A DNA stretch of 20,000 bases from an uncultured virus (IMG/VR IMGVR_UViG_2671180412_000004) (taxonomy: Duplodnaviria; Heunggongvirae; Uroviricota; Caudoviricetes): the IMG/VR virus record IMGVR_UViG_2671180412_000004, one strand, 5' to 3'. How positions within the stretch are numbered: position 1 is the first letter of the stretch; the number at the start of each line of letters is the position of its first letter. This document shows positions 5,815 through 17,108 of this stretch, piece after piece. The notes under the pieces are model-generated. The model had not been told where the DNA came from, did no database searches, and saw only the letters and a program-made list of their open reading frames with translations. The position numbers were made by a program, and so were the translations under genes.

Positions 5815-6412
5815 CCTGCTTCCTCCTGGTTCATCGCCGCTTGAGCGCCGCCTGGCTCAGACCTGCAGCGGAATTTCCGATCTGCAGGTGCCGCTGCGGG
5901 ATTTATGGAACCCGGCAACATGCCCGGTCAAGTTTCTGCCGTATCTGGCGTGGGCCTTTTCGGTTGATCGCTGGGACGAAGGATGGGCGGAGAGCGTGAA
6001 GCGCCGTGTGGTGCAGGATGCTTTCTATATCCATCAGCACAAGGGCACAACCAGTGCTGTGCGGCGTGTGGTGGAGCCGTTCGGCTTTCTGATCCGCATT
6101 ATTGAATGGTGGCAGACCGGCGAGGCGCCGGGCACGTTTCGCCTGGATATCGGGGTGCAGGACCAGGGCATAACAGAGGAAACCTATCTGGAGCTGGAGC
6201 GCCTGATTGGTGACGCCAAACCCTGCAGCCGGCATCTGATCGGCATGTCCATAAACCTGCAGACGAGCGGACCATATTTCGTTGGGGCTGCCACTTACAC
6301 CGGCGAAGAAATCACGATTTACCCGTATATCAACGAAACCATCATTTCCGGTGGCTCTGCCTACGAGGGCGGCGCCGTCCATGTTATCGACACAATGAGA
6401 GTGAACCCATGA
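5807..6412 (+). CDS. I: Baseplate/tail protein, P2 gpI-like
   Basis: MNSLLPPGSS...LWNPATCPVKFLPYLAWAFSVDRWD...HQHKGT. Confidence 0.93.
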   Translation: MNSLLPPGSSPLERRLAQTCSGISDLQVPLRDLWNPATCPVKFLPYLAWAFSVDRWDEGWAESVKRRVVQDAFYIHQHKGTTSAVRRVVEPFGFLIRIIEWWQTGEAPGTFRLDIGVQDQGITEETYLELERLIGDAKPCSRHLIGMSINLQTSGPYFVGAATYTGEEITIYPYINETIISGGSAYEGGAVHVIDTMRVNP

Positions 6413-7797
6413 GCGCAAAATTTTATACCCTGCTGACGGATATTGGCGCGGCGAAACTGGCAAGCGCTGCCGCGCTCGGTGTGCCGCTGAAAATTACCCA
6501 GATGGCGGTGGGGGATGGCGGCGGCGTGCTTCCAACTCCCAGCGCACAACAGACGAAGCTGGTTTCCGAAAAGCGGCGCGCTGACCTGAACATGCTTTAC
6601 ATCGATCCGCAGAACAGCAGCCAGATCATTGCTGAGCAGGTGATTCCTGAAACTGAGGGCGGTTGGTGGATTCGTGAAGTTGGGCTGTTCGATGAAACGG
6701 GCGCGCTGATCGCAGTGGGAAACTGCCCGGAGAGCTACAAACCGCAGCTGGCAGAAGGGAGCGGCCGCACGCAAACAGTGCGCATGGTACTGATTACCAG
6801 CAGCACCGATAACATTACGCTGAAAATTGACCCGTCCGTAGTGCTGGCTACCCGCAAATATGTGGATGACAAGGTGCTGGAACTGAAGGTGTATGTAGAT
6901 GAGCTGATGGCGGCGCATCTTGCTGCAGCTGATCCGCATACGCAATATGCGCCAAAAGCCAGCCCGACGTTTACCGGCACCCCAAAAGCCCCGACTGCAG
7001 CTGCAGGTAACAATACCACTCAACTTGCCACAACTGCGTTTGTTCAGGCGGCTCTGATCGCCCTGGTGAATGGTGCCCCGGCTACACTGGACACGCTGAA
7101 AGAAATTGCTGCGGCTATCAACAACGATCCTAATTTCAGCACCACCATTAATAACGCGCTTGCACTCAAAGCCCCACTGGCAAGCCCGGCCCTGACCGGA
7201 ACGCCGACAGCCCCCACGGCTGCGCAGACTGTCAACAATACGCAAATAGCCACTACTGCTTTCGTAAAATCAGCTCTGGCTGCGCTTGTTGGCTCATCAC
7301 CTGCGGCGCTTGATACCCTGAACGAGCTGGCGGCGGCGTTAGGAAACGATCCTAACTTTGCAACCACCATGACAAATGCGCTGGCAGGCAAGCAGCCGCT
7401 GGATAGCACGCTGACAACTTTGTCTGGAAAAACCGCAGATGGGATTATCGAATACCTTCGTTTGGGGGAAGCGGCGAAAAGGACTGTTGGAACCGGTGCA
7501 AATCAGATACCGGATATGACTGCATTCACATCTGATCTGCGATGGTTCAAATTACCTAGCGGCCATATTGTGCAGGTTTTTTCGGTTGATGTTTACAGCT
7601 CGGATGTAGAGGGAACGCCTGCGGTTTATCCAATAGCTTTCCCTTATTCGTTACTGGCTATATCCGCCATATGGGTAGACCCAACGCAGACAGAAGCACC
7701 GACGTACAAAATCATCGGTGGTGATCGAACGCTCGCAAAAATTAAAACATCAAAGGCAGGAAAGTACGGGACCATGATTATAGCCATCGGTAAATAA
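6409..7797 (+). CDS. H: Tail fibre protein, P2 gpH-like: constant part aa 1-350 plus currently fused variable tip cassette 1 (7459-7797)
   Basis: P2 H N-terminus (MSAKFYTLLTDIGAAKLA...PESYKPQLAEGSGRTQTVRM); crossover site lies in frame at Y-L-R-L-G-E. Confidence 0.93.
   Translation: MSAKFYTLLTDIGAAKLASAAALGVPLKITQMAVGDGGGVLPTPSAQQTKLVSEKRRADLNMLYIDPQNSSQIIAEQVIPETEGGWWIREVGLFDETGALIAVGNCPESYKPQLAEGSGRTQTVRMVLITSSTDNITLKIDPSVVLATRKYVDDKVLELKVYVDELMAAHLAAADPHTQYAPKASPTFTGTPKAPTAAAGNNTTQLATTAFVQAALIALVNGAPATLDTLKEIAAAINNDPNFSTTINNALALKAPLASPALTGTPTAPTAAQTVNNTQIATTAFVKSALAALVGSSPAALDTLNELAAALGNDPNFATTMTNALAGKQPLDSTLTTLSGKTADGIIEYLRLGEAAKRTVGTGANQIPDMTAFTSDLRWFKLPSGHIVQVFSVDVYSSDVEGTPAVYPIAFPYSLLAISAIWVDPTQTEAPTYKIIGGDRTLAKIKTSKAGKYGTMIIAIGK
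6949..7392 (+). repeat. Two tandem 222-bp (74-aa) fibre shaft repeats
   Basis: APKASPTFTGTPKAPT...LDTLKEIAAAINNDPNFSTT (from 6949) versus APLASPALTGTPTAPT...LDTLNELAAALGNDPNFATT (from 7171). Confidence 0.85.
7445..7470 (+). repeat. Invertase crossover site 1 (hix/gix-like, fixed left arm inside H)
   Basis: ttatcgaatacc-TT-cgtttgggggaa; 12-2-12 architecture resembling hixL (TTATCAAAAACC-TT-GGTTTTCAAGAA). Confidence 0.9.
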
Positions 7798-7813
7798 CGT
7801 TCGTTTGGGAGAA
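7788..7813 (+). repeat. Invertase crossover site 2
   Basis: cggtaaataacg-TT-cgtttgggagaa(gcggc); left arm contains the H stop codon. Confidence 0.88.
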
Positions 7814-8143
7814 GCGGCAAAAATGGAGGCGGCCACCGCCCAGATCGGTGCTAATGGCTGGCTATATATTCCCGTTTCTGGCGGCAAAAAAATGCTGCTG
7901 CAGTGGGGGCTTTTAACCGGTGCGAGTAATTATTCTTTTAAATTCCCAATTGCATTTCCCGTAGGTGGTTTATGCCTGGTTGCAATGGCCCATACAACTG
8001 ATTCCGCTGATGTGAGCATGGTAACTATGACTAATGGATTTATCAGGGATAAAACCAGCGCGTTTGCTTTGTGCGCCAGAACAGTGAACGGCGTGCAGCA
8101 ACCTTTTGAACGTAGCGTTTACTGGGTCGCTGTTGGCTACTGA
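7802..8143 (+). CDS. Silent tail-fibre tip cassette 2 (113 aa; no start codon of its own)
   Basis: Begins RLGEAA at site 2; WLYIP...LLQWG...FPIAFP...WVAVGY pattern shared with the other tips. Confidence 0.85.
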   Translation, partial: RLGEAAKMEAATAQIGANGWLYIPVSGGKKMLLQWGLLTGASNYSFKFPIAFPVGGLCLVAMAHTTDSADVSMVTMTNGFIRDKTSAFALCARTVNGVQQPFERSVYWVAVGY

Positions 8144-8154
8144 CGTCAAAAAAT

Positions 8155-8212
8155 TGTGTGATTACTGACACATGGTAGCTAGATAATTATTTTACGAAAC
8201 CGCACTTACGAT
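8155..8212 (+). promoter_or_regulatory. Putative Ogr-dependent late promoter for the fibre chaperone
   Basis: TGT-gtgattactgac-ACA at 8155-8172 and TACGAT at 8207-8212; same spacing as pV and pF. Confidence 0.75.
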
Positions 8213-8238
8213 CTGAGTCTCAAACTAAGGAGTGCGTT

Positions 8239-8712
8239 ATGAACTATTGGTTTAGCCCTGCAAATAATGCTTTTTACCCCGTAGCTTTAAAGGAGTCTTA
8301 TGTAAATGCAGGTAGTCTTCCTAATGATTTAATCGAAGTGGAGGATAGTGTTTTTAGCGAATTTTCCGCGACGCCACCAGAAGGGAAATTGCGTGGCATT
8401 GGATCTGATGGTTTTCCGATCTGGATTGATATTCCCATTGTGGAAGAAAGCCCGGAACAAATCCAGGCACGCGCCCGTGCTTTGCGGGATGAATTCATCG
8501 TCAGTACAGATCGAATGCTTGTTTCTGATTACACTATCAACAATGTTTTATTAACCTCTGAGCAGCAAGCGGAACTTTTGGATGTAAGGCAAAAGTTTAA
8601 AGTTTGGCCTGAGAGTGAGGGATGGCCGCACATAGCGTTGCCTGCGATACCTCAATGGATTCTCATTGAGGCAGTAAACAACGGTTACGTAGTAAAAAAT
8701 TGGCCTGAGTGA
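8239..8712 (+). CDS. Tail fibre assembly chaperone (Tfa/gpG-like)
   Basis: taaggag RBS; N-terminal YWFSPANNAFYP...PPEGKLRGIGSDGFPIWIDIP typical of Tfa proteins; located among the fibre cassettes. Confidence 0.8.
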   Translation: MNYWFSPANNAFYPVALKESYVNAGSLPNDLIEVEDSVFSEFSATPPEGKLRGIGSDGFPIWIDIPIVEESPEQIQARARALRDEFIVSTDRMLVSDYTINNVLLTSEQQAELLDVRQKFKVWPESEGWPHIALPAIPQWILIEAVNNGYVVKNWPE

Positions 8713-8739
8713 AATAAAGCCCGTAAGGGCTTTATTTTT
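8712..8739. terminator. Likely bidirectional intrinsic terminator between the chaperone and cassette 3
   Basis: aaataaagccc-gtaa-gggctttattt(tt); T-rich tail on both strands. Confidence 0.8.
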
Positions 8740-8767
8740 ATACAGTCGGGTTAGCTACAGGATTAAA

Positions 8768-9136
8768 TTAAAACCCTATTGCAAACCACGTAAACATACG
8801 GGAATTACCAGGCAGAGTATCGTCAAGGAAAAACTGAGCGTTAACACCCGTTTTCGTTGGGTAGCCGATTGAAACAGCTTGCCTTAAAGTTCTATAGATT
8901 GGCACATAATCATAATCGGATGCCCTCACGCCTGCGCTTGAATAGACGCCGAAGCAGGCCGCAGGAAACGCTACGGGAAAAGTTATATCACACTTATAAG
9001 TAGTGCTTGTTACACCTCCCTCCCATCGTCCCCACTGCACCATTAACGTAATACCGCCGATTAATGGGAATTTCGCCCAGCCGCTATTAGACAAAACGCC
9101 GCTCGCTGCGGCGAGTTTTGCCGCTTCTCCCAAACG
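8768..9136 (-). CDS. Silent tail-fibre tip cassette 3 (122 aa)
   Basis: Begins RLGEAA at site 3; GWAKFP...MVQWG...FPVAFP...WFAIGF. Confidence 0.85.
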   Translation of the reverse strand, partial: RLGEAAKLAAASGVLSNSGWAKFPLIGGITLMVQWGRWEGGVTSTTYKCDITFPVAFPAACFGVYSSAGVRASDYDYVPIYRTLRQAVSIGYPTKTGVNAQFFLDDTLPGNSRMFTWFAIGF

Positions 9137-9150
9137 AACGTTTAAAACCC
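9125..9150 (-). repeat. Invertase crossover site 3
   Basis: Minus strand gggttttaaacg-TT-cgtttgggagaa(gcggc). Confidence 0.88.
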
Positions 9151-9510
9151 TATAGCTGTAAACCGTGTTCCGGCATTACTTCTGGTTGAAAAATTTCGCG
9201 CCATTACCGATTTACGGGAATCAGTAACAGATTGAGCATCTACCCCGATAGAGATCGGCACGGTCGAATCTGCCGATCCGGCCGCGGTAAAAATCACGAA
9301 ACACATTTGAGTTGGAAACGCTATTGGATAAAAAACCTCAATGGACGTTCCAGCGGGGATGGAAGTTATTGCCCCGGTTTGAATGATTAACCCATTCGGG
9401 AACTTCGCGTAAGAGTTTGCACCCCCTGCAAAATTTGCAGCAAAAAGCCCCATATCTGGAAGTTGCCCGCTTGATGCACCAACCCCTCTTTTTGCCGCGT
9501 CCCCCAAACG
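9142..9510 (-). CDS. Silent tail-fibre tip cassette 4 (122 aa)
   Basis: Begins RLGDAAKRGVGASSGQLPDM (like cassette 1 RLGEAAKRTVGTGANQIPDM); YAKFPNGLIIQTG...YPIAFP...FTAIGF. Confidence 0.85.
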   Translation of the reverse strand, partial: RLGDAAKRGVGASSGQLPDMGLFAANFAGGANSYAKFPNGLIIQTGAITSIPAGTSIEVFYPIAFPTQMCFVIFTAAGSADSTVPISIGVDAQSVTDSRKSVMARNFSTRSNAGTRFTAIGF

Positions 9511-9524
9511 AACGTTATTTGCTT
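9499..9524 (-). repeat. Invertase crossover site 4
   Basis: Minus strand aagcaaataacg-TT-cgtttgggggac(gcggc). Confidence 0.88.
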
Positions 9525-9882
9525 AATAGCCAATGGCTATAAACCGGAATGACACGTTTGCATTTAACGCATTTAGAACGGCTCCAGCCTGAGATAACTT
9601 AACCGCTCTTGTAGTAAAAGTTGAAAGGGTTGCAGGCGCTGCAGAACCAAACCCAACGCCAGCATCCTCAGGATTATTATGCGTAACATATACTTGTGCA
9701 AACACGGATGGGAACGCGACAGGAAGCGAAGATGTGTAGACCTCTCCACTACCTGCTGTATTAACACCACCTTGCCCCCATTGAAGAATTAAATTTTTGT
9801 TACCACTCATCGGGATTTTGGCCCATCCGTTATAGCCAATAACACCGCTAACAGCTGGCAGCGTTGCCGCTTCCCCCAAACG
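9523..9882 (-). CDS. Silent tail-fibre tip cassette 5 (119 aa)
   Basis: Begins RLGEAA at site 5; GWAKIP...LILQWG...LPVAFP...FIAIGY. Confidence 0.85.
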   Translation of the reverse strand, partial: RLGEAATLPAVSGVIGYNGWAKIPMSGNKNLILQWGQGGVNTAGSGEVYTSSLPVAFPSVFAQVYVTHNNPEDAGVGFGSAAPATLSTFTTRAVKLSQAGAVLNALNANVSFRFIAIGY

Positions 9883-9896
9883 AAGGTTTTTTATCC
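9871..9896 (-). repeat. Invertase crossover site 5 (fixed outer arm, upstream of the invertase)
   Basis: Minus strand ggataaaaaacc-TT-cgtttgggggaa(gcggc). Confidence 0.9.
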
Positions 9897-10004
9897 GCCA
9901 CGGTCATGATTGTCCGTGTTGGCCATTCTCTGCAGTACAGTCAGAAATGACCATGCTCGATAAAATGGTGGCATCATTCACCACTTTTTTAAGGGCGAAA
10001 AATC

Positions 10005-10592
10005 ATGCAAATCGGTTACGTGAGGGTGTCAACAAATGACCAAAACACGGCTTTACAACGAAATGCGCTGGAGTGCGCAGGATGTGAGCTGATATTTGAG
10101 GACAAAATGAGCGGAAAAACCTCAGATCGGCCAGGGCTAAAGAAGGTCCTGCGCACACTCTCAGAAGGTGACACGCTGGTAGTCTGGAAGCTGGACAGAT
10201 TAGGCAGGAGCATGCGACATCTTGTTACGCTGATTGAAGACCTGCGCGGGAGAGGGGTAAATTTCCGCAGCCTGACAGACAGCATTGACACATCAACTCC
10301 AATGGGGCGTTTCTTTTTCCATGTTATGGGCGCCCTGGCTGAAATGGAACGTGAGCTAATCGTTGAGCGTACCCGCGCCGGGCTGGCAGCGGCCAGACAG
10401 CAAGGGCGTATCGGTGGCAGGCGGCCAAAACTGACAGAGCAGCAATGGGCGCAGGCCGGGCGACTCCTTGAGGCAGGGGAAAGCAGGAAGCGTGTTGCGC
10501 TAATTTTTGATGTGGGTATCTCCACTCTGTACCGTAAATTTCCCGCGTCTGCCGTGGCGCCATTGTCTGAGCGGTCAGACACCCCTGTATAA
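10005..10592 (+). CDS. Serine DNA invertase (Hin/Gin/Cin/Pin family)
   Basis: GYVRVSTNDQN (catalytic Ser), VVWKLDRLGRS, GRFFFHVMGALAEMERELIVERTRAGL, GRIGGRRPKL, C-terminal HTH. Confidence 0.96.
   Translation: MQIGYVRVSTNDQNTALQRNALECAGCELIFEDKMSGKTSDRPGLKKVLRTLSEGDTLVVWKLDRLGRSMRHLVTLIEDLRGRGVNFRSLTDSIDTSTPMGRFFFHVMGALAEMERELIVERTRAGLAAARQQGRIGGRRPKLTEQQWAQAGRLLEAGESRKRVALIFDVGISTLYRKFPASAVAPLSERSDTPV
10025..10090 (+). promoter_or_regulatory. Putative Fis-binding recombinational enhancer inside the invertase 5' coding region
   Basis: gtgtcaacaaatgacc...gcgcaggatgtgagc resembles the hin enhancer in sequence and position (recalled, not aligned). Confidence 0.55.
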
Positions 10593-10621
10593 ATGAACAT
10601 GCTTTCTCATTTATGTAACCT
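10564..10621 (+). promoter_or_regulatory. Putative Ogr-dependent late promoter for the methyltransferase
   Basis: TGT-ctgagcggtcag-ACA at 10564-10581 (7-bp perfect arms tgtctga/tcagaca) and TAACCT at 10616-10621; same spacing as pV and pF. Confidence 0.75.
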
Positions 10622-10650
10622 GAAATCAGGCACATAAGAGAGGCAAAGCT

Positions 10651-11403
10651 ATGCAAAAAGCGGTTATTGGGGCGGCAACGATTTACTGTGGTGACAGTCT
10701 GGAAATTTTGCGCGAACTCACTGGCGAATTTGATGCAGTAATTACTGATCCGCCTTATTCCAGCGGTGGTATGACGCGCAGTGATCGGCAGGCCAAACCC
10801 TCAGGGAAGTATGTAGGCAATAACAACTACCATGAGTTTTACGGCGATAACAGAGACGTGCGATCCTGGGCGTTCTGGATGACGCAGTGGATGAGTCAGG
10901 TTAACCGCCTGGTCAAGTCAGGCGGGTATGCCATGGTTTTCACTGACTGGCGGCAGCTTCCAACGCTTACTGACGTTTTCCAGGCTGGCGGTTTTGTATG
11001 GCGGGGGCTGATTCCGTGGGATAAAACCCTTTCAACCCGTGCGCCTCATACCGGTTATTTTCGCCATCAGTGCGAATACGTTGTCTGGGGAAGTAACGGA
11101 CCATTGCCTAAAAGTCTGCATGGTGGACCCTGGCCGGGTATGGTGACTCGCCGGGTTATTCCGTCTCAAAAACTCCATATGACCGGCAAACCGATTGAGC
11201 TTATGGAAAGCCTGATTGCCCCCGTTCCCCCTGGAGGCCATATTCTTGATCCATTTATGGGGAGTGCATCAACTGGCGTTGCCGCGCTGAGGAAGGGATA
11301 TAAATTTACCGGGATTGAGATGAGCCAGCAGTATTTTGATATCTCATGTGAACGCCTGGAAAAAGAAAACGCAGATATCCGCGCGGGCGTATTGTGTGAT
11401 TAA
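10651..11403 (+). CDS. Orphan beta-class amino (N6-adenine/N4-cytosine) DNA methyltransferase
   Basis: Motif IV DPPY near the N-terminus, H-x-T-x-KP, motif [12 protein letters not shown] near the C-terminus, GIE; gagagg RBS; no adjacent endonuclease. Confidence 0.92.
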
Positions 11404-11450
11404 GGGAACAATGCCGCGTAGCTGTCTGCGCGGCCCATTCAATTCACCAT
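11393..11450 (+). promoter_or_regulatory. Ogr-dependent late promoter pF
   Basis: TGT-gtgattaaggga-ACA at 11393-11410 and CACCAT at 11445-11450, upstream of FI. Confidence 0.8.
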
Positions 11451-11483
11451 AGGGCGAAACCTAAACACCGGAGGGTTCGCCGT

Positions 11484-12656
11484 ATGGCTCAGGATTATCA
11501 CCACGGTGTGCGCGTCGTTGAGGTCAACGATGGCACCCGCCCCATTTCAACAGTAAGCACGGCAATTGTCGGTATGGTCTGTACCGGCGATGATGCAGAT
11601 GCGTCCGTGTTCCCCCTCAATAAACCGGTCCTGCTCACCGACGTGCTGACCGCCAGCGGTAAAGCAGGCGAGTCCGGCACGTTGGCCCGCTCGCTGGATG
11701 CAATTGCCGACCAGGCTAAACCCGTGACCGTCGTTGTGCGCGTGGCTCAGGGTGAAACCGAAGCGGAGACAACCTCCAACATTATCGGCGGCGTGACAGC
11801 TGACGGTAAAAAAACGGGCATGAAAGCGCTGTTATCTGCGCAGTCTCAGCTCGGCGTTAAGCCGCGCATTCTGGGCGTGCCGGGGCATGACACGCAGGCG
11901 GTTGCCACTGAGCTGCTGAGCGTGGCGCAGAGTCTACGCGGGTTCGCCTATCTGTCAGCCTACGGCTGCAAAACGGTAGAGGAGGCCATTGCCTACCGCG
12001 CTAATTTCAGCCAGCGCGAGGGAATGCTGATCTGGCCTGATTTCATCAGTTTTGACACCGTGCTGAATGCTGACGCAACGGCCTACGCCTCAGCCCGTGC
12101 GCTTGGTCTACGTGCCAAAATTGACGAGCAGACCGGCTGGCACAAATCCCTGTCCAACGTGGGCGTGAACGGCGTCACCGGCATTTCTGCGGATGTGTTC
12201 TGGGATTTGCAGGACCCGGCAACCGATGCGGGGCTGCTGAACCAGAACGATGTCACCACGCTGATCCGCAAGGACGGTTTCCGCTTCTGGGGCTCCCGCT
12301 GCCTCAGTGACGATCCTCTGTTTGCCTTTGAAAACTACACCCGCACCGCGCAGGTACTGGCTGACACCATCGCCGAAGCGCACATGTGGGCGGTTGATGG
12401 CGTGCTTAACCCTTCGCTGGCCCGCGACATTATCGAAGGTATTCGCGCCAAACTGCGCAACCTGAAAACACAGGGCTACATCATCGGCGCCGACTGCTGG
12501 CTGGATGAGTCCGTAAACGATAAAGATTCCCTGAAAGCCGGGAAGCTCACTATCGATTACGACTATACGCCGGTACCGCCTCTGGAAAACCTGATGCTGC
12601 GCCAGCGCATCACCGATCAGTATCTGCTGGATTTCTCCAGCCAGGTCAGCGCGTAA
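11484..12656 (+). CDS. FI: Tail sheath protein, P2 gpFI-like
   Basis: [21 protein letters not shown]...GFRFWGSR...[13 protein letters not shown]. Confidence 0.95.
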
Positions 12657-12665
12657 GGGGACAAT

Positions 12666-13181
12666 ATGGCTTTACCACGCAAGTTAAAACACCTGAACCT
12701 GTTTAACGACGGGAATAACTATCAGGGGATTGTTGAGTCCCTGACCCTGCCTAAATTCGGCCGCAAGTTTGAAAAGTATCGCGGCGGCGGTATGCCCGGT
12801 TCGGCTGATGTTGATCTGGGGCTGGATGATGGCGCGCTGGACACGGAATTTTCAATCGGTGGCACCGAACTGCTGTTATTCAAACAGATGGGTAAAGCCA
12901 CCGTTGACGGTATCCAGCTGCGTTTCACCGGCTCCATTCAGCGTGACGATACCGGCGAAGTGCAGGCCGTTGAGCTGGTTGTGCGCGGGCGACATAAAGA
13001 AGTCGATTCCGGCGAATGGAAAACCGGGGAGAGCAACACTACAAAAGTCAGCAGCACCAACAGCTACGCGAAGCTGACCATTAACGGCGAGGTGCTCTAT
13101 GAGGTTGATGTGATCAACATGATTGAAATCGTTGATGGCGTGGACCTGATGGAAGAACACCGCAATGCCCTGGGCCTATGA
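12666..13181 (+). CDS. FII: Tail tube protein, P2 gpFII-like
   Basis: MALPRKLKHLNLFNDG...YRGGGMPG...HRNALGL. Confidence 0.95.
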   Translation: MALPRKLKHLNLFNDGNNYQGIVESLTLPKFGRKFEKYRGGGMPGSADVDLGLDDGALDTEFSIGGTELLLFKQMGKATVDGIQLRFTGSIQRDDTGEVQAVELVVRGRHKEVDSGEWKTGESNTTKVSSTNSYAKLTINGEVLYEVDVINMIEIVDGVDLMEEHRNALGL

Positions 13182-13235
13182 TCTACTTTAAAGGCGCGGG
13201 CAGCCGCGCCAGTACCTTATTAACAGGAAATGACA

Positions 13236-13538
13236 ATGAGCGAACAACTGACTGAAAAAACCGTACAGCTGGACACCCCAATCAAACGCGGTAAAACCGA
13301 AATTGCCGAAATTGTGCTGCGCAAGCCGCAGTCCGGCGCGCTGCGTGGCACCCGTCTGCAGGCGATCATGGATATGGACGTCGGCGCGATGATGACGATT
13401 ATTCCCCGCATCTCCACGCCCGCGCTGACCGCTCAGGAAATGGCTGAAATGGACCCCGCCGATCTCACCGCGCTGTCGGTTGAGGTGGTCACTTTTTTGT
13501 TGAAGAAATCGGTGCTTGCCGGTTTGCCGACAGCCTGA
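13236..13538 (+). CDS. E: Tail assembly chaperone gpE (start 13236 or 13230)
   Basis: LDTPIKRGKTEI...LRKPQSGALRG...DPADL; cagga RBS. Confidence 0.88.
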   Translation: MSEQLTEKTVQLDTPIKRGKTEIAEIVLRKPQSGALRGTRLQAIMDMDVGAMMTIIPRISTPALTAQEMAEMDPADLTALSVEVVTFLLKKSVLAGLPTA

Positions 13539-13672
13539 CGGTAGAAGACCTGGTGGCTGATATCGCCACCATTTTTCACTGGCCGCCGTCCGTCACTGAC
13601 GTTATGCCGCTGACCGAAGTGCTGGAGTGGCGGCATAAAGCGATTCAGAGAAGCGGGGCCAGCGATGAGTGA
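13493..13672 (+). CDS. E': gpE' extension reached by a programmed -1 frameshift at T-TTT-TTG (13493-13499)
   Basis: -1 frame is open: VEEIGACRFADSLTVEDLVADIATIFHWPPSVTDVMPLTEVLEWRHKAIQRSGASDE*, stop at 13670-72; same slippery heptamer as P2. Confidence 0.88.
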   Translation, partial: FFVEEIGACRFADSLTVEDLVADIATIFHWPPSVTDVMPLTEVLEWRHKAIQRSGASDE

Positions 13673-16600
13673 CACTAACCTGCGTTTGCAGGTAATTCTA
13701 AATGCGGTTGATAAACTCACCCGCCCATTCCGATCAGCGCAGGCCAGTTCTAAAGAGCTGGCTACCGCCATTCAGCAAAGCCGCGCAAGATTAAAAGAAC
13801 TGGACGCCCAGGCGGGCCGTATTGACGGTTTCCGCAAGGCAAGCGCGCAGCTGGCCGTCACCGGCAATAGTCTTAAAGCCGCACGCGAAGAAGCGGCGAA
13901 GCTTGCCACGCAGTTCTCGGCCACTAACCGGCCGACGGCGGCGCAGGCGCGTCTGCTGGAGCAGGCAAAAAACCGCGTTAACGAGCTGCAGAGCAAATAC
14001 AACGGCCTGCGTCAGTCGGTGCAGCGTCAGCGTCTTGCGCTCAATGAGGCCGGGCTGGACACCAAAAAGCTGAGCAGTGCGCAGCGGGAGCTGCGGCAGA
14101 ATGCCGACGAAACCCGGCAGGCGCTGGACCGACAGCAGAAATCCCTTAAGCGCCTGGGCGAGCAGCAGGCCCGTATGAATGCCGTACGCGATCAGTATTC
14201 GCGGCGCCTTGAGGTGCGGGATCGTATCGCGGGCGCCGGAGCAACAACTACTGCCGCCGGGCTGGCGATGGGCGCGCCGGTGATGGCAGCGGTTAAAAGC
14301 TATGCCAGCATGGAAGATGCGATGAAAGGCGTGGCAAAGCAGGTTAACGGGCTGCGGGACGACAACGGCAACCGAACAAAACAGTTTTACGACATGCAGG
14401 ATGCCATCAAGGCCGCCAGTGAACAGCTGCCGATGGAGAATGGCGCCATCGACTATGCCGCGCTGGTTGAAGGTGGCGCCCGCATGGGCGTGACAAACCA
14501 GAACGATTCTTACGAAGACCAGAAGCGTGACCTGCTGGCCTTTGCATCCACTGCAGCAAAGGCCGCAACGGCATTCGAGCTGCCCGCTGATGAGCTGGCG
14601 GAGGGGCTGGGGAAAATCGCGCAGCTGTATAAAGTGCCGACCCGTAATATTGAACAGCTGGGCGATGCCCTGAACTACCTGGACGATAACGCCATGTCTA
14701 AGGGCGGCGATATCATCAATGTGCTGCAGCGCATGGGGGGGGTGGCCGACCGGCTTGATTTCCGCAAGGCGGCCGCGCTGGGTTCCACCTTCCTGTCTCT
14801 GGGTGCCGCGCCTGAAATTGCCGCCAGCGCATCAAATGCGATGGTGCGCGAACTGTCGATTGCGACCATGCAGAGCAAGCGGTTCATGGAAGGTATGGAT
14901 CTGCTGAAACTCAATCCAGAAGAGATTGAAAAGCAGATGACAAAGGACGCAATGGGGACCATTCAGCGCGTGCTGGAGAAGGTCAACAAGCTGCCGCAGG
15001 ATAAACGCCTGTCCGCCATGACGATGATATTTGGTAAGGAGTTTGGCGACGATGCGGCGAAGCTTGCAAACAACCTGCCGGAGCTGCAGCGACAGCTGAA
15101 ACTCACCTCAGGCACTGAGGCTAACGGCTCCATGCAGAAAGAATCCGATATCAATAAGGATTCACTTTCCGCGCAGTGGTTGCTTGTGAAAACGGGCGCG
15201 CAGAACGCTTTCAGTAGCCTGGGTGAAACCCTGCGCCAGCCGCTGATGGATATCATGGGGTACGTCAAAAGCGTTACCGGGGCACTGCGTCGATGGGTTG
15301 AGGCTAACCCGCAGCTGGCGGGCACGCTGATGAAAGTGGCTGCAGCCACAGCTGCGATCACCGTTGTGCTCGGCACGCTGGCGGTGGCCGTGGCTGCCGT
15401 GCTGGGGCCGCTGGCGGTGATCCGTTTTGGCCTGTCCGTGCTGGGTGTAAAAACACTCCCCTCCGTTATGTCTGCAGTGACCCGCACCGGCGGCGCGCTG
15501 TCCTGGCTGGCAAATGCGCCGCTTTCCCTGTTGCGCCGTGGCCTGGCTGCATCAGGCAGCAGCGCCGGATTGCTGGCGTCTCCCCTTAACTCCTTGCGCC
15601 GTTCTGCTGGGCTGGCTGGCAATGCGCTGAAAGCGCTGGCCGGTGCGCCGCTTGCTGTCCTTCGCGGCGGAATGTCTGGTATTCGCAACATTATCGGTAT
15701 GGTAATGAATCCGCTGGCCGCGTTGCGCGGGGGATTATCCGCAGCGGGTGGCGTGCTGCGTTTTCTGGCGTCCGGTCCGCTGGCCCTCCTTCGCGTTGCG
15801 CTGTACGGGATTTCTGGATTGCTGGGCGCCCTGCTTAGTCCGATAGGGCTCGTTGTGGCGGCGCTGGCTGGCGTGGCGCTGGTTGTCTGGAAATACTGGC
15901 AGCCGATAAGCGCATTTTTAGGCGGAGTGGTTGAAGGATTCAAAGCTGCAGCTGCGCCTATCAGTGCGGCGTTTGAGCCACTGCAGCCTGTTTTCCAGTG
16001 GATAGGTGACAAGGTCCAGGCATTGTGGGGCTGGTTTACTGATCTGCTGACGCCGGTTAAATCCACCTCTGCAGAGCTGCAAAGCGCGGCGTCGATGGGG
16101 CGGCAGTTTGGGGAGGCGCTGGCGGCAGGGCTGAACATGGTCATGCACCCGCTGGATTCGCTTAAATCGGGCGTGTCCTGGCTGCTTGAAAAACTTGGCA
16201 TTGTCAGCAAGGAAGCGGCCAAAGCGAAGCTTCCTGAGCAGGTCACGCGGCAGCAACCAGCCACGGTAAACACAGACGGTAAAGTGGTGCTGCCGCCTGG
16301 CGGATTCCCGCCGATGGGTTTTGCTGGCATGTACGACAGCGGCGGTACCATTCCGCGCGGCCAGTTCGGCATCGTGGGTGAGAATGGCCCAGAGATCGTA
16401 AACGGGCCCGCCAATGTCACCGGCAGGAAACGGACTGCTGATCTGGCGAGGGTGGCGGCAACTCTCAATCCTTCCCGGACGGAACCAGTCAGCGCTAAAC
16501 AACGTCCTGAACGCGGGATAGTTCTGCCGCCTGATAGTGTGAACGGTCCGGCAAATATTCCGGTAATCAATCGCACTACTGAACTGGTGAAACTGGCGGC

Positions 16601-17108
16601 AACAGTAAGCCCCGTTCGTGATGTAACAGCCAGCCCGGAGCAACGGCCTGAAAGCAGGTTAATACTGCCTCCTGAGATTGTTAACGCCCCGGTAAAACTT
16701 CCTGGTCGGGATCGTGCTGCGGAGCTGGCTGATATCGCTGCTGCCGTCATGCCAGCACCGGCCATTATGGAAATCACGGATAACAGGGCTGACCCGATGG
16801 TTATGCGCCAGAAGGTGTTCGCTTCCGTGGTCGCTGGGGTAATGGGCCTGGCTGCTGCCCCGGCAGAAGCCGCACCACTTCATCCGTACAGTGTACCTGT
16901 CAGGACGCAACCGGCGCCGTCAGCAAAGGCAGAGAGACAGCCGCAGGTCATTAAGTACGAGATAAGCGCGCCAATTCATATTGTCGCCCAGCCAGGGCAA
17001 AGCGCACAGGATATCGCCCGCGAGGTGGCCCGGCAGCTTGATGAGCGAGAGCGCAGGGCCAGGGCAAAAACACGCAGTAATTTCAGTGATCGAGGGGGTT
17101 ACGAATAA
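13665..17108 (+). CDS. T: Tail tape measure protein, P2 gpT-like (1147 aa)
   Basis: MSDTNLRLQVILNAVDKLTRPF start, Ala-rich helical protein, position between E' and U. Confidence 0.93.
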   Translation: MSDTNLRLQVILNAVDKLTRPFRSAQASSKELATAIQQSRARLKELDAQAGRIDGFRKASAQLAVTGNSLKAAREEAAKLATQFSATNRPTAAQARLLEQAKNRVNELQSKYNGLRQSVQRQRLALNEAGLDTKKLSSAQRELRQNADETRQALDRQQKSLKRLGEQQARMNAVRDQYSRRLEVRDRIAGAGATTTAAGLAMGAPVMAAVKSYASMEDAMKGVAKQVNGLRDDNGNRTKQFYDMQDAIKAASEQLPMENGAIDYAALVEGGARMGVTNQNDSYEDQKRDLLAFASTAAKAATAFELPADELAEGLGKIAQLYKVPTRNIEQLGDALNYLDDNAMSKGGDIINVLQRMGGVADRLDFRKAAALGSTFLSLGAAPEIAASASNAMVRELSIATMQSKRFMEGMDLLKLNPEEIEKQMTKDAMGTIQRVLEKVNKLPQDKRLSAMTMIFGKEFGDDAAKLANNLPELQRQLKLTSGTEANGSMQKESDINKDSLSAQWLLVKTGAQNAFSSLGETLRQPLMDIMGYVKSVTGALRRWVEANPQLAGTLMKVAAATAAITVVLGTLAVAVAAVLGPLAVIRFGLSVLGVKTLPSVMSAVTRTGGALSWLANAPLSLLRRGLAASGSSAGLLASPLNSLRRSAGLAGNALKALAGAPLAVLRGGMSGIRNIIGMVMNPLAALRGGLSAAGGVLRFLASGPLALLRVALYGISGLLGALLSPIGLVVAALAGVALVVWKYWQPISAFLGGVVEGFKAAAAPISAAFEPLQPVFQWIGDKVQALWGWFTDLLTPVKSTSAELQSAASMGRQFGEALAAGLNMVMHPLDSLKSGVSWLLEKLGIVSKEAAKAKLPEQVTRQQPATVNTDGKVVLPPGGFPPMGFAGMYDSGGTIPRGQFGIVGENGPEIVNGPANVTGRKRTADLARVAATLNPSRTEPVSAKQRPERGIVLPPDSVNGPANIPVINRTTELVKLAATVSPVRDVTASPEQRPESRLILPPEIVNAPVKLPGRDRAAELADIAAAVMPAPAIMEITDNRADPMVMRQKVFASVVAGVMGLAAAPAEAAPLHPYSVPVRTQPAPSAKAERQPQVIKYEISAPIHIVAQPGQSAQDIAREVARQLDERERRARAKTRSNFSDRGGYE
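16389..16760 (+). repeat. Three diverged 141-bp (47-aa) tandem repeats in the tape-measure C-terminus (third partial)
   Basis: VNGPAN at 16398, VNGPAN at 16539, VNAPVK at 16680. Confidence 0.8.

Follow-up and report, generated by a model that had tools for sequence, protein, structure and literature searches.

A Min-type array of five tail-fibre tips with a Gin-like invertase, a probable multiple DNA-inversion switch in a P2-like Enterobacter prophage

The 20,000-nucleotide stretch of the IMG/VR virus record IMGVR_UViG_2671180412_000004, an uncultured member of the Caudoviricetes, is referred to here, at its full length, as the window. It carries a tail-fibre gene, H, whose constant part is followed by an array of five alternative tip cassettes and a gene for a serine DNA invertase of the Gin/Cin family. 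We interpret this locus as an active switch of the Min type, which changes the fibre tip of a P2-like Enterobacter prophage by multiple DNA inversion, with a probability of about 0.9. The preliminary description of this DNA had proposed an inversion switch offering five fibre tips, and that proposal is supported by the existence of other isomers in public data, by crossover sites of the cix/gix type and by an intact Gin-like invertase.

The window contains five exact copies, with 0 mismatches, of the 19-nucleotide core TTCGTTTGGGRGAMGCGGC, at 7457 and 7800 on the + strand and at 9138, 9512 and 9884 on the - strand. Only 0.01 copies are expected, and none of the shuffled sequences reaches five (0/200). 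The cores belong to 26-bp sites that start at 7445(+), 7788(+), 9150(-), 9524(-) and 9896(-), exactly where they had been placed before, each with a central TT 12 nucleotides further in. All five sites share this TT core, two of them on the + strand and three on the - strand. The TT of site A constitutes bases 2-3 of CTT, the Leu350 codon of H (offset 1048, that is, zero-based codon 349, +1), in agreement with the crossover point given in the preliminary description. In the register of H, each site opens a reading frame that lacks a start codon and begins with (L/V)RLG(E/D)AA, with lengths of 113, 114, 123, 123 and 120 amino acids; the 112-122 amino acids given previously are the same frames without the codon before the R. 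Defining a Min-type array by at least three sites, present in both orientations, with start-less cassettes in frame on one constant part, we find five sites and five frames in the window. The order of elements is Hc / A> c1 / B> c2-TAP-hairpin-c3 <C / c4 <D / c5 <E / invertase / DNA methylase / sheath, where Hc is the constant part of H and TAP the tail-fibre assembly protein. The components are the following.

6409..7458, + strand: Hc, the constant part of tail-fibre gene H, amino acids 1-350 (Pfam Phage_tail_fib N-terminal domain, 6.8e-64)
7445..7470, + strand: site A, inside H, TTATCGAATACC TT CGTTTGGGGGAA
7456..7797, + strand: c1, the tip now fused to Hc, 113 amino acids from Leu350 (Gp53-like_C weak, E 0.0099, below cut-off)
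7788..7813, + strand: site B, in direct orientation to A, with the c1 stop codon in its left half
7799..8143, + strand: c2, 114 amino acids, start-less, one head of the central segment (Pfam Gp53-like_C, 1.2e-09)
8239..8712, + strand: TAP, the sole tail-fibre assembly protein of the array (Pfam Caudo_TAP, 1.2e-06; phrog_188, 6.4e-37)
8710..8741, no strand assigned: hairpin (8710-8737) between TAP and c3, with an A-run before and a T-run after it (-20.3 kcal/mol, z -4.0, 0/200 shuffles fold as well)
8768..9139, - strand: c3, 123 amino acids, the other head of the central segment (Gp53-like_C, 7.7e-11)
9125..9150, - strand: site C
9142..9513, - strand: c4, 123 amino acids, a single-cassette module (Gp53-like_C, 1.2e-12)
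9499..9524, - strand: site D
9523..9885, - strand: c5, 120 amino acids, a single-cassette module (Gp53-like_C, 1.2e-10)
9871..9896, - strand: site E, the outermost, whose left half is part of the fixed right flank
10005..10592, + strand: Gin/Cin-family serine DNA invertase, 195 amino acids (Pfam Resolvase, 1.7e-51, and HTH_7, 3.1e-14)
10023..10090, + strand: putative recombinational enhancer at the 5' end of the invertase gene, recognized by its likeness to the putative cin enhancer of P7

Three modules of the array (c1, c4 and c5) thus hold a single cassette each, and the remaining element is the two-headed central segment, c2-TAP-terminator-c3. In each single module the stop codon sits within or just ahead of the left half of the next site, which makes the module a compact unit of 343-374 bp. 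The whole open reading frame of H as presently expressed extends from 6409 to 7797 and encodes 462 amino acids. Pfam matches to Tail_P2_I, Baseplate_J, the Phage_tail_fib N-terminus, sheath and tube families surround it, which bears out the P2-like setting proposed earlier. With five sites, a breadth-first simulation of inversions between inverted sites yields 48 isomers, reproducing the 4! x 2 = 48 arrangements of the preliminary description; with six sites, it yields 240. Among the 48, c1, c4 or c5 is the expressed tip in 12 isomers each, and c2 or c3 in 6 each.

Evidence for rearrangement comes from public sequence data. At least 20 public runs contain all or part of the window stretch in their Logan contigs, and four of these (X2, X7, X9 and X12) were aligned to positions 6900-10400. 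Among the contigs listed for X2, one runs forward from c4 through c2-TAP-c3 and reaches the tail of c5; ahead of c1 stands the left half of the fixed right flank, and after it the head of c5; and the contig over the Hc junction differs from the window at two letters, both matching the head of c4. Combined, the X2 contigs therefore give the order Hc>c4>c2-TAP-c3<c5<c1<invertase. In X7, a 3356-nucleotide contig joins 7456 to 7800 (Hc>c2). The c1 cassette of this run lies on a separate contig behind the tail of c5, and was thus relocated and not deleted. Joins of Hc to cassettes other than c1, which the preliminary description had proposed to look for, are present in these runs as the Hc>c2 contig of X7 and the Hc-c4 junction of X2. 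In X7 we also observed the head of c5, at the loose end behind window position 9889, joined to a cassette tail that is not in the window (...AIGF, stop, ...ACC), and this strain may carry a sixth tip.

The two isolate runs, X9 and X12, contain mixed junctions. Their contigs break at every site, and junction contigs of 43-50 nucleotides occur at fractional depth; in X12 these have depths of 5.9 and 8.7, against 14.4 for Hc. The longest exact run common to any two sites is 27 nucleotides, shorter than the word size of the Logan assembly, which we take to be k=31, so the breaks do not come from repeat collapse. A further arrangement, c3<c1<c5<c4<invertase, was found in the IMG/VR contig L067. The invertase of this contig is 100% identical to that of the window, with cassette identities of 98-100%, so L067 holds the same set in another isomeric form. 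In the simulation, 4 inversions suffice to convert the window order into either the X2 or the L067 arrangement. The cassette order accordingly differs among closely related prophages, and the identical order throughout that would have spoken for a fixed array was not found. Alternative isomers exist, so the segments do invert.

Related arrays were collected by scanning IMG/VR for the site, which gave 34 stretches, and 25 sources were annotated with one script: the window, contig L001 of genome G001 (Enterobacter sp. RIT637), L031, and 22 IMG/VR loci (one per contig). Complete arrays, in which both outer sites are visible, have two sites in L047, L051, L058 and L066, where they consist of a plain c2-TAP / c3 segment, three in L039, L043, L048, L049 and L063, four in L041, L053 and L062, and five in the window. 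In L065, five sites are visible and the contig stops on a cassette tail, which implies at least six. G001 reads Hc>new>c5>new-TAP(reversed)-c2< on a contig of 2128 bp. In these relatives, the central segment always combines c2-TAP with a partner tip, which is either c3 or a different one. The left half of site E, GGATAAAAAACC, is also found on the invertase side of 10 related arrays. In all complete arrays (13/13), the codon before RLG encodes L (ACC|TT) at the two outermost sites alone, whose left halves derive from Hc or from the right flank, and V (ACG|TT) at every inner site, where the left half is a cassette tail (again 13/13). This pattern is the one predicted by exchange at the TT.

Beyond IMG/VR, an exact-site scan of species genomes returned 17 loci, the relevant ones being in Enterobacter sp. 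RIT637 (4 sites), Enterobacteriaceae bacterium LSJC7 and one Enterobacteriaceae metagenome-assembled genome. Twelve single site matches in unrelated metagenome-assembled genomes from the same scan were taken as chance or unrelated. At genus level, 5 of the 81 species representatives have the site with at most 1 mismatch, and arrays are present in G001 (4 sites) and G085 (3 sites). Hc is 96-99% identical to H of G001 and of the G002 provirus up to the site. In G002 (C1:4000-11000), where Hc is 96% identical, the homology to the window stops at about the crossover site, which indicates that the whole variable module has been swapped; what follows is an ordinary 578-amino-acid H and a 132-amino-acid assembly gene, with no sites and no invertase. 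A megablast search against phage records revealed no close phage, and only the invertase and one cassette were matched.

The invertase is of full length, with the catalytic Ser9 in VRVSTNDQ. An N-terminal catalytic domain containing the serine and a C-terminal helix-turn-helix together identify it as a small serine recombinase. It aligns with the Gin structures 3uj3 and 4m6f over amino acids 1-183 (E 2e-90), Gin being its nearest solved relative; the preliminary description was right in placing an invertase of the Hin/Gin family downstream of the array, and the gene is intact. In tblastn comparisons, its identity is 89.5% with the invertase of Citrobacter phage Chris1, about 87% with the enzymes of P2-like phages from Klebsiella and E. 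coli, 84% with the Fels-2 invertase and 81% with P1/P7 Cin. We compared the sites with the crossover points annotated in the P7 record, reading cixR from Sc into Sv.

P7 cixR: left TTATCCAATACC / core TT / right GGTTTAAGAGAA
Window site A: left TTATCGAATACC / core TT / right CGTTTGGGGGAA

Site A matches cixR at 11/12 positions of the left half and 8/12 of the right half, with an identical TT core. The right halves of all five sites match P7 cix half-sites at 7-9/12 positions, and the left halves of B, C and D match them weakly, at 3-7/12. With their 26-bp length and identical 2-bp core, the sites can be assigned to the cix/gix type.

A Fis-dependent enhancer in cis is usual in the 5' part of invertase genes of the Hin/Gin/Cin/Pin/Min class. 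Nucleotides 19-86 of the window invertase gene are identical to the putative cin enhancer of P7 at 58/68 positions, compared with 308/454 in the rest of the gene; at third codon positions, the match to P7 is 14/22 within nucleotides 19-86 and 62/152 elsewhere. The extra conservation at 10023-10090 would fit a conserved enhancer in cis.

In the mechanism that we propose, the Gin-homologous invertase (10005-10592) would bind the five 26-bp sites and act, probably with host Fis, on the putative enhancer at the start of the invertase gene. Two inverted sites would be paired and both cut at the central TT, the subunits would rotate, and the ends would be religated. An inversion involving site A would join the 350 constant residues of H to another Gp53-like tip of 113-123 amino acids, and, because every site shares one register at (L/V)RLGEAA, any such inversion would give an in-frame fusion. 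Inversions among the remaining sites would reorder the silent tips. With 48 isomers and five possible tips, a culture of the lysogen would release phage that differ in receptor specificity.

Several observations weigh against this interpretation. The four aligned runs are assembled contigs and not raw reads, so they yield no isomer frequencies, and the case for switching in the window's own strain comes from near-identical phages. L046 breaks the rules seen in the other arrays, with a truncated cassette and a second direct-orientation site at the contig end. NZ_CP066556.1, a 35.4-kb circular 'plasmid' record of E. hormaechei, is the same phage (flanks 99.6-99.8% identical) and reads Hc>c2-TAP-c3<c5<c1<invertase. 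In this record (7695-16735), the cassettes are frameshifted and c4 is absent, so that the array equals the X2 isomer minus c4. This record may represent a deletion between direct sites or a consensus blend of a mixed culture, and the array may not always be kept whole; in X7, by comparison, c1 was moved without loss. Systems of the Hin/Gin/Cin/Pin/Min class strongly favour inversion over deletion between direct sites. The enhancer is termed putative even in P7 and lies within a coding stretch, so its conservation (58/68 against 308/454) is suggestive only. Finally, the lone TAP is tied to c2 and opposes the H operon in 24/48 simulated isomers, so that some isomers might be left without a working fibre.

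That reliance on near-identical phages leaves room for a frozen array, made up of relic sites and cassettes whose order is fixed in this strain, for example through a silent or inactive invertase. Decayed relatives do exist: L039/L056, from one 85-kb IMG/VR provirus record, has a three-site array in which the c2-like and second cassettes are 42 and 89 amino acids long, and is probably a decaying copy. In the window, however, the invertase is of full length with its catalytic serine, each of the five cassettes has an open frame and the core is identical at every site. Since L067 presents another isomer together with a 100% identical invertase, and mixed junctions occur in two isolate runs, we regard a frozen array as improbable. 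The different orders might also have arisen independently of the invertase, by homologous recombination at short repeats, by exchange between phages or by assembly errors. Cassettes do move between phages, as the relatives of c5 and c1 in Cronobacter phage JK004 indicate, and cassette content differs among arrays; assemblies of mixed populations can be chimeric, and NZ_CP066556.1 looks error-ridden. Yet the repeats share at most 27 exact nucleotides, a poor substrate for RecA, and every junction observed falls at a site. The arrangements obey a rule of forward singles, central segment and reversed singles, and carry the L/V signature. Deletion of gin abolished rearrangement in the Enterobacter prophage FRphi (PMC13418256). 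Such an origin is accordingly very hard to reconcile with the data, and an invertase-driven switch is by far the better explanation of the array.

Systems of this kind are known. Mu Gin and P1 Cin are two-site switches between two fibre ends. The Min system of p15B, described by Sandmeier, Iida and Arber in 1990-1992, reportedly has six sites and 240 isomers. The window array resembles Min in its serine invertase, in having several sites in both orientations with overlapping invertible segments and the same combinatorial rule, and in its start-less tip cassettes in frame with one constant gene part. It differs from the description of p15B, a P1-like plasmid with six sites, in being part of a 35-kb P2-like prophage with five sites. 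Its invertase lies downstream, outside the array, and reads away from it, as in Mu and unlike p15B Min. With Mu G/Gin, P1/P7 C/Cin and e14 P/Pin, the window shares the 26-bp site type, the TT core and a related enzyme, but has five sites instead of two. The single cassettes of the window lack dedicated chaperone genes, in contrast to P7, in whose record U or U' chaperones are annotated for both orientations. Only the first ~150 nucleotides of c1 (site and head) have a 76% match in 1467/5426 E. coli genomes, in genes annotated as stfP or gp53-like, which ties the sites to the Pin/e14 class.

Another array of this type was recognized in Cronobacter phage JK004 (MZ188976.1, 93.8 kb, circular), which has at least 6 head-to-tail cassettes with the same kind of site. 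These include c5-like and c1-like tips, the former 90.7% identical to c5 at the nucleotide level, and the invertase is 71% identical to that of the window. The JK004 array is Min-type, with modules in common with the P2-like prophage of the window. The JK004 cassettes are unannotated or labelled 'hypothetical' and lie across the start of the circular record (1-2400), with the invertase about 2.1 kb before its end.

Among the closest published cases is FRphi, an Enterobacter prophage (Nat Microbiol 2026; PMC13418256). Long reads show three C-terminal fibre isoforms in it, at ~50, 25 and 25%; the isoforms are locked when gin is deleted, and one isoform alone infects, via FhuA. FRphi thus provides an experimental precedent for gin-driven tip switching (PMC13418256). 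Related loci are stated there to have up to six tip paralogues, with an example in Citrobacter. Like the window, FRphi as described is an Enterobacter prophage with a gin-type recombinase downstream of the fibre gene and alternative C-terminal tips at a single boundary. Mixed isoforms are reported in its cultures and virions, and relatives of the window show mixed junctions within runs. FRphi has three tips, a fliC-tldR cargo beside the locus and lambda-like cI/cII, its cassettes being compared here by description only; in the window there are five tips, and the invertase is flanked by a DNA methylase, with no fliC or tldR in that place.

The preliminary description called the locus a shufflon. 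In the strict sense of R64, which implies the tyrosine recombinase Rci and sfx sites, the term does not hold, as the only recombinase of the locus is a serine invertase; it is apt only in the loose sense of PMC13418256, and the system of the window is Min-type. The array is similar to the R64 shufflon and bifidobacterial Rin in that multiple inversions swap the C-termini of adhesins or receptor-binding proteins (PMC6109161). Rci and Rin are tyrosine recombinases acting on short asymmetric sites, in contrast to the serine invertase of the window. The same paper presents Min of p15B as the system in which a serine invertase brings about multiple inversions of tail-fibre genes, and Rin as an analogue with a tyrosine recombinase (PMC6109161). 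Tail-fibre genes are listed among the families enriched for programmed inversions in PMC9881135, and a Xenorhabdus preprint cites fibre inversion in Pectobacterium and Pantoea tailocins. We found no published description of this five-tip array of an Enterobacter P2-like prophage; Extended Data Fig. 6b or the supplementary tables of PMC13418256 may include it.

The tips themselves were compared with Pfam Gp53-like_C (PF21882, curated cut-off 24.9 bits). Cassettes c2 to c5 score 39-48.7 bits, and c1 scores 16.8 bits, under the cut-off. Nevertheless, c1 and c4 match the same PHROGs (phrog_2557, 1396 and 4209), and c1 keeps the invariant P-x-A-F-P and terminal G columns of the other tips. We thus assign all five tips to the Gp53-like C-terminal fibre domains, c1 by PHROGs and motifs rather than by the Pfam cut-off. 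An AlphaFold2 model of c1, built on a 7-row alignment, is all-beta and has a mean predicted local distance difference test score of 57.8, too poor for fold comparison. A sequence search with c4 against solved structures gave only a weak match, to the putative tail-fibre protein 4mtm (E 0.0012).

TAP adjoins c2 in the same orientation in 16/16 arrays that hold both. Neither the partner head, whether c3 or a different tip, nor any single cassette has an assembly gene of its own. In L039/L056, TAP is only 53% identical. The hairpin at 8710-8737 is likely, from its predicted fold and flanking runs, to be a two-way terminator in the middle of the central segment, and because it looks two-way, H transcripts would end mid segment in either orientation. 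A consensus scan did not list the 8710-8737 hairpin. A promoter scan of 7300-10700 found 4 promoter-like sites, compared with 4.5 expected.

Array sizes in this lineage include 2, 3, 4, 5 and at least 6 sites. One possible, and still tentative, account of this variation is that plug-in modules of about 345-375 bp, each made of a right half-site, a chaperone-free tip, a stop codon and a left half-site, might make the arrays grow or shrink round an ancestral c2-TAP/c3 core. The other tips would then fold without a chaperone, the invertase would sometimes shed a module at direct sites, and modules would circulate among P2-like prophages and a 94-kb Min-type phage.

An N6/N4 DNA methyltransferase (Pfam N6_N4_Mtase, 3.7e-27; phrog_67, 2.3e-65) is encoded at 10651-11403 on the + strand, after the invertase and before the sheath gene. 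Among relatives with the invertase on the contig, the methyltransferase is present in L039, L049, L062, L066 and L067 and was not detected in L041, L043, L047, L051, L053, L058 and L063. As it is present in only some relatives, it is separate cargo and not part of the switch.

No new principle is involved here: serine-invertase switches with several tips are familiar from p15B Min onwards, and one has recently been shown in an Enterobacter prophage (PMC13418256); the window array is a further member of the Min/Gin family. It would provide one temperate Enterobacter phage with five receptor-binding tips, and the natural data suggest that these are really used. This explains why short-read assemblies break in such prophages, as in the 2128-bp cassette contig of G001, and why records described as 'complete' may hold blended or frameshifted cassettes. 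The finding is relevant to predicting host range, to typing phages and to choosing receptor-binding domains for Enterobacter and related bacteria.

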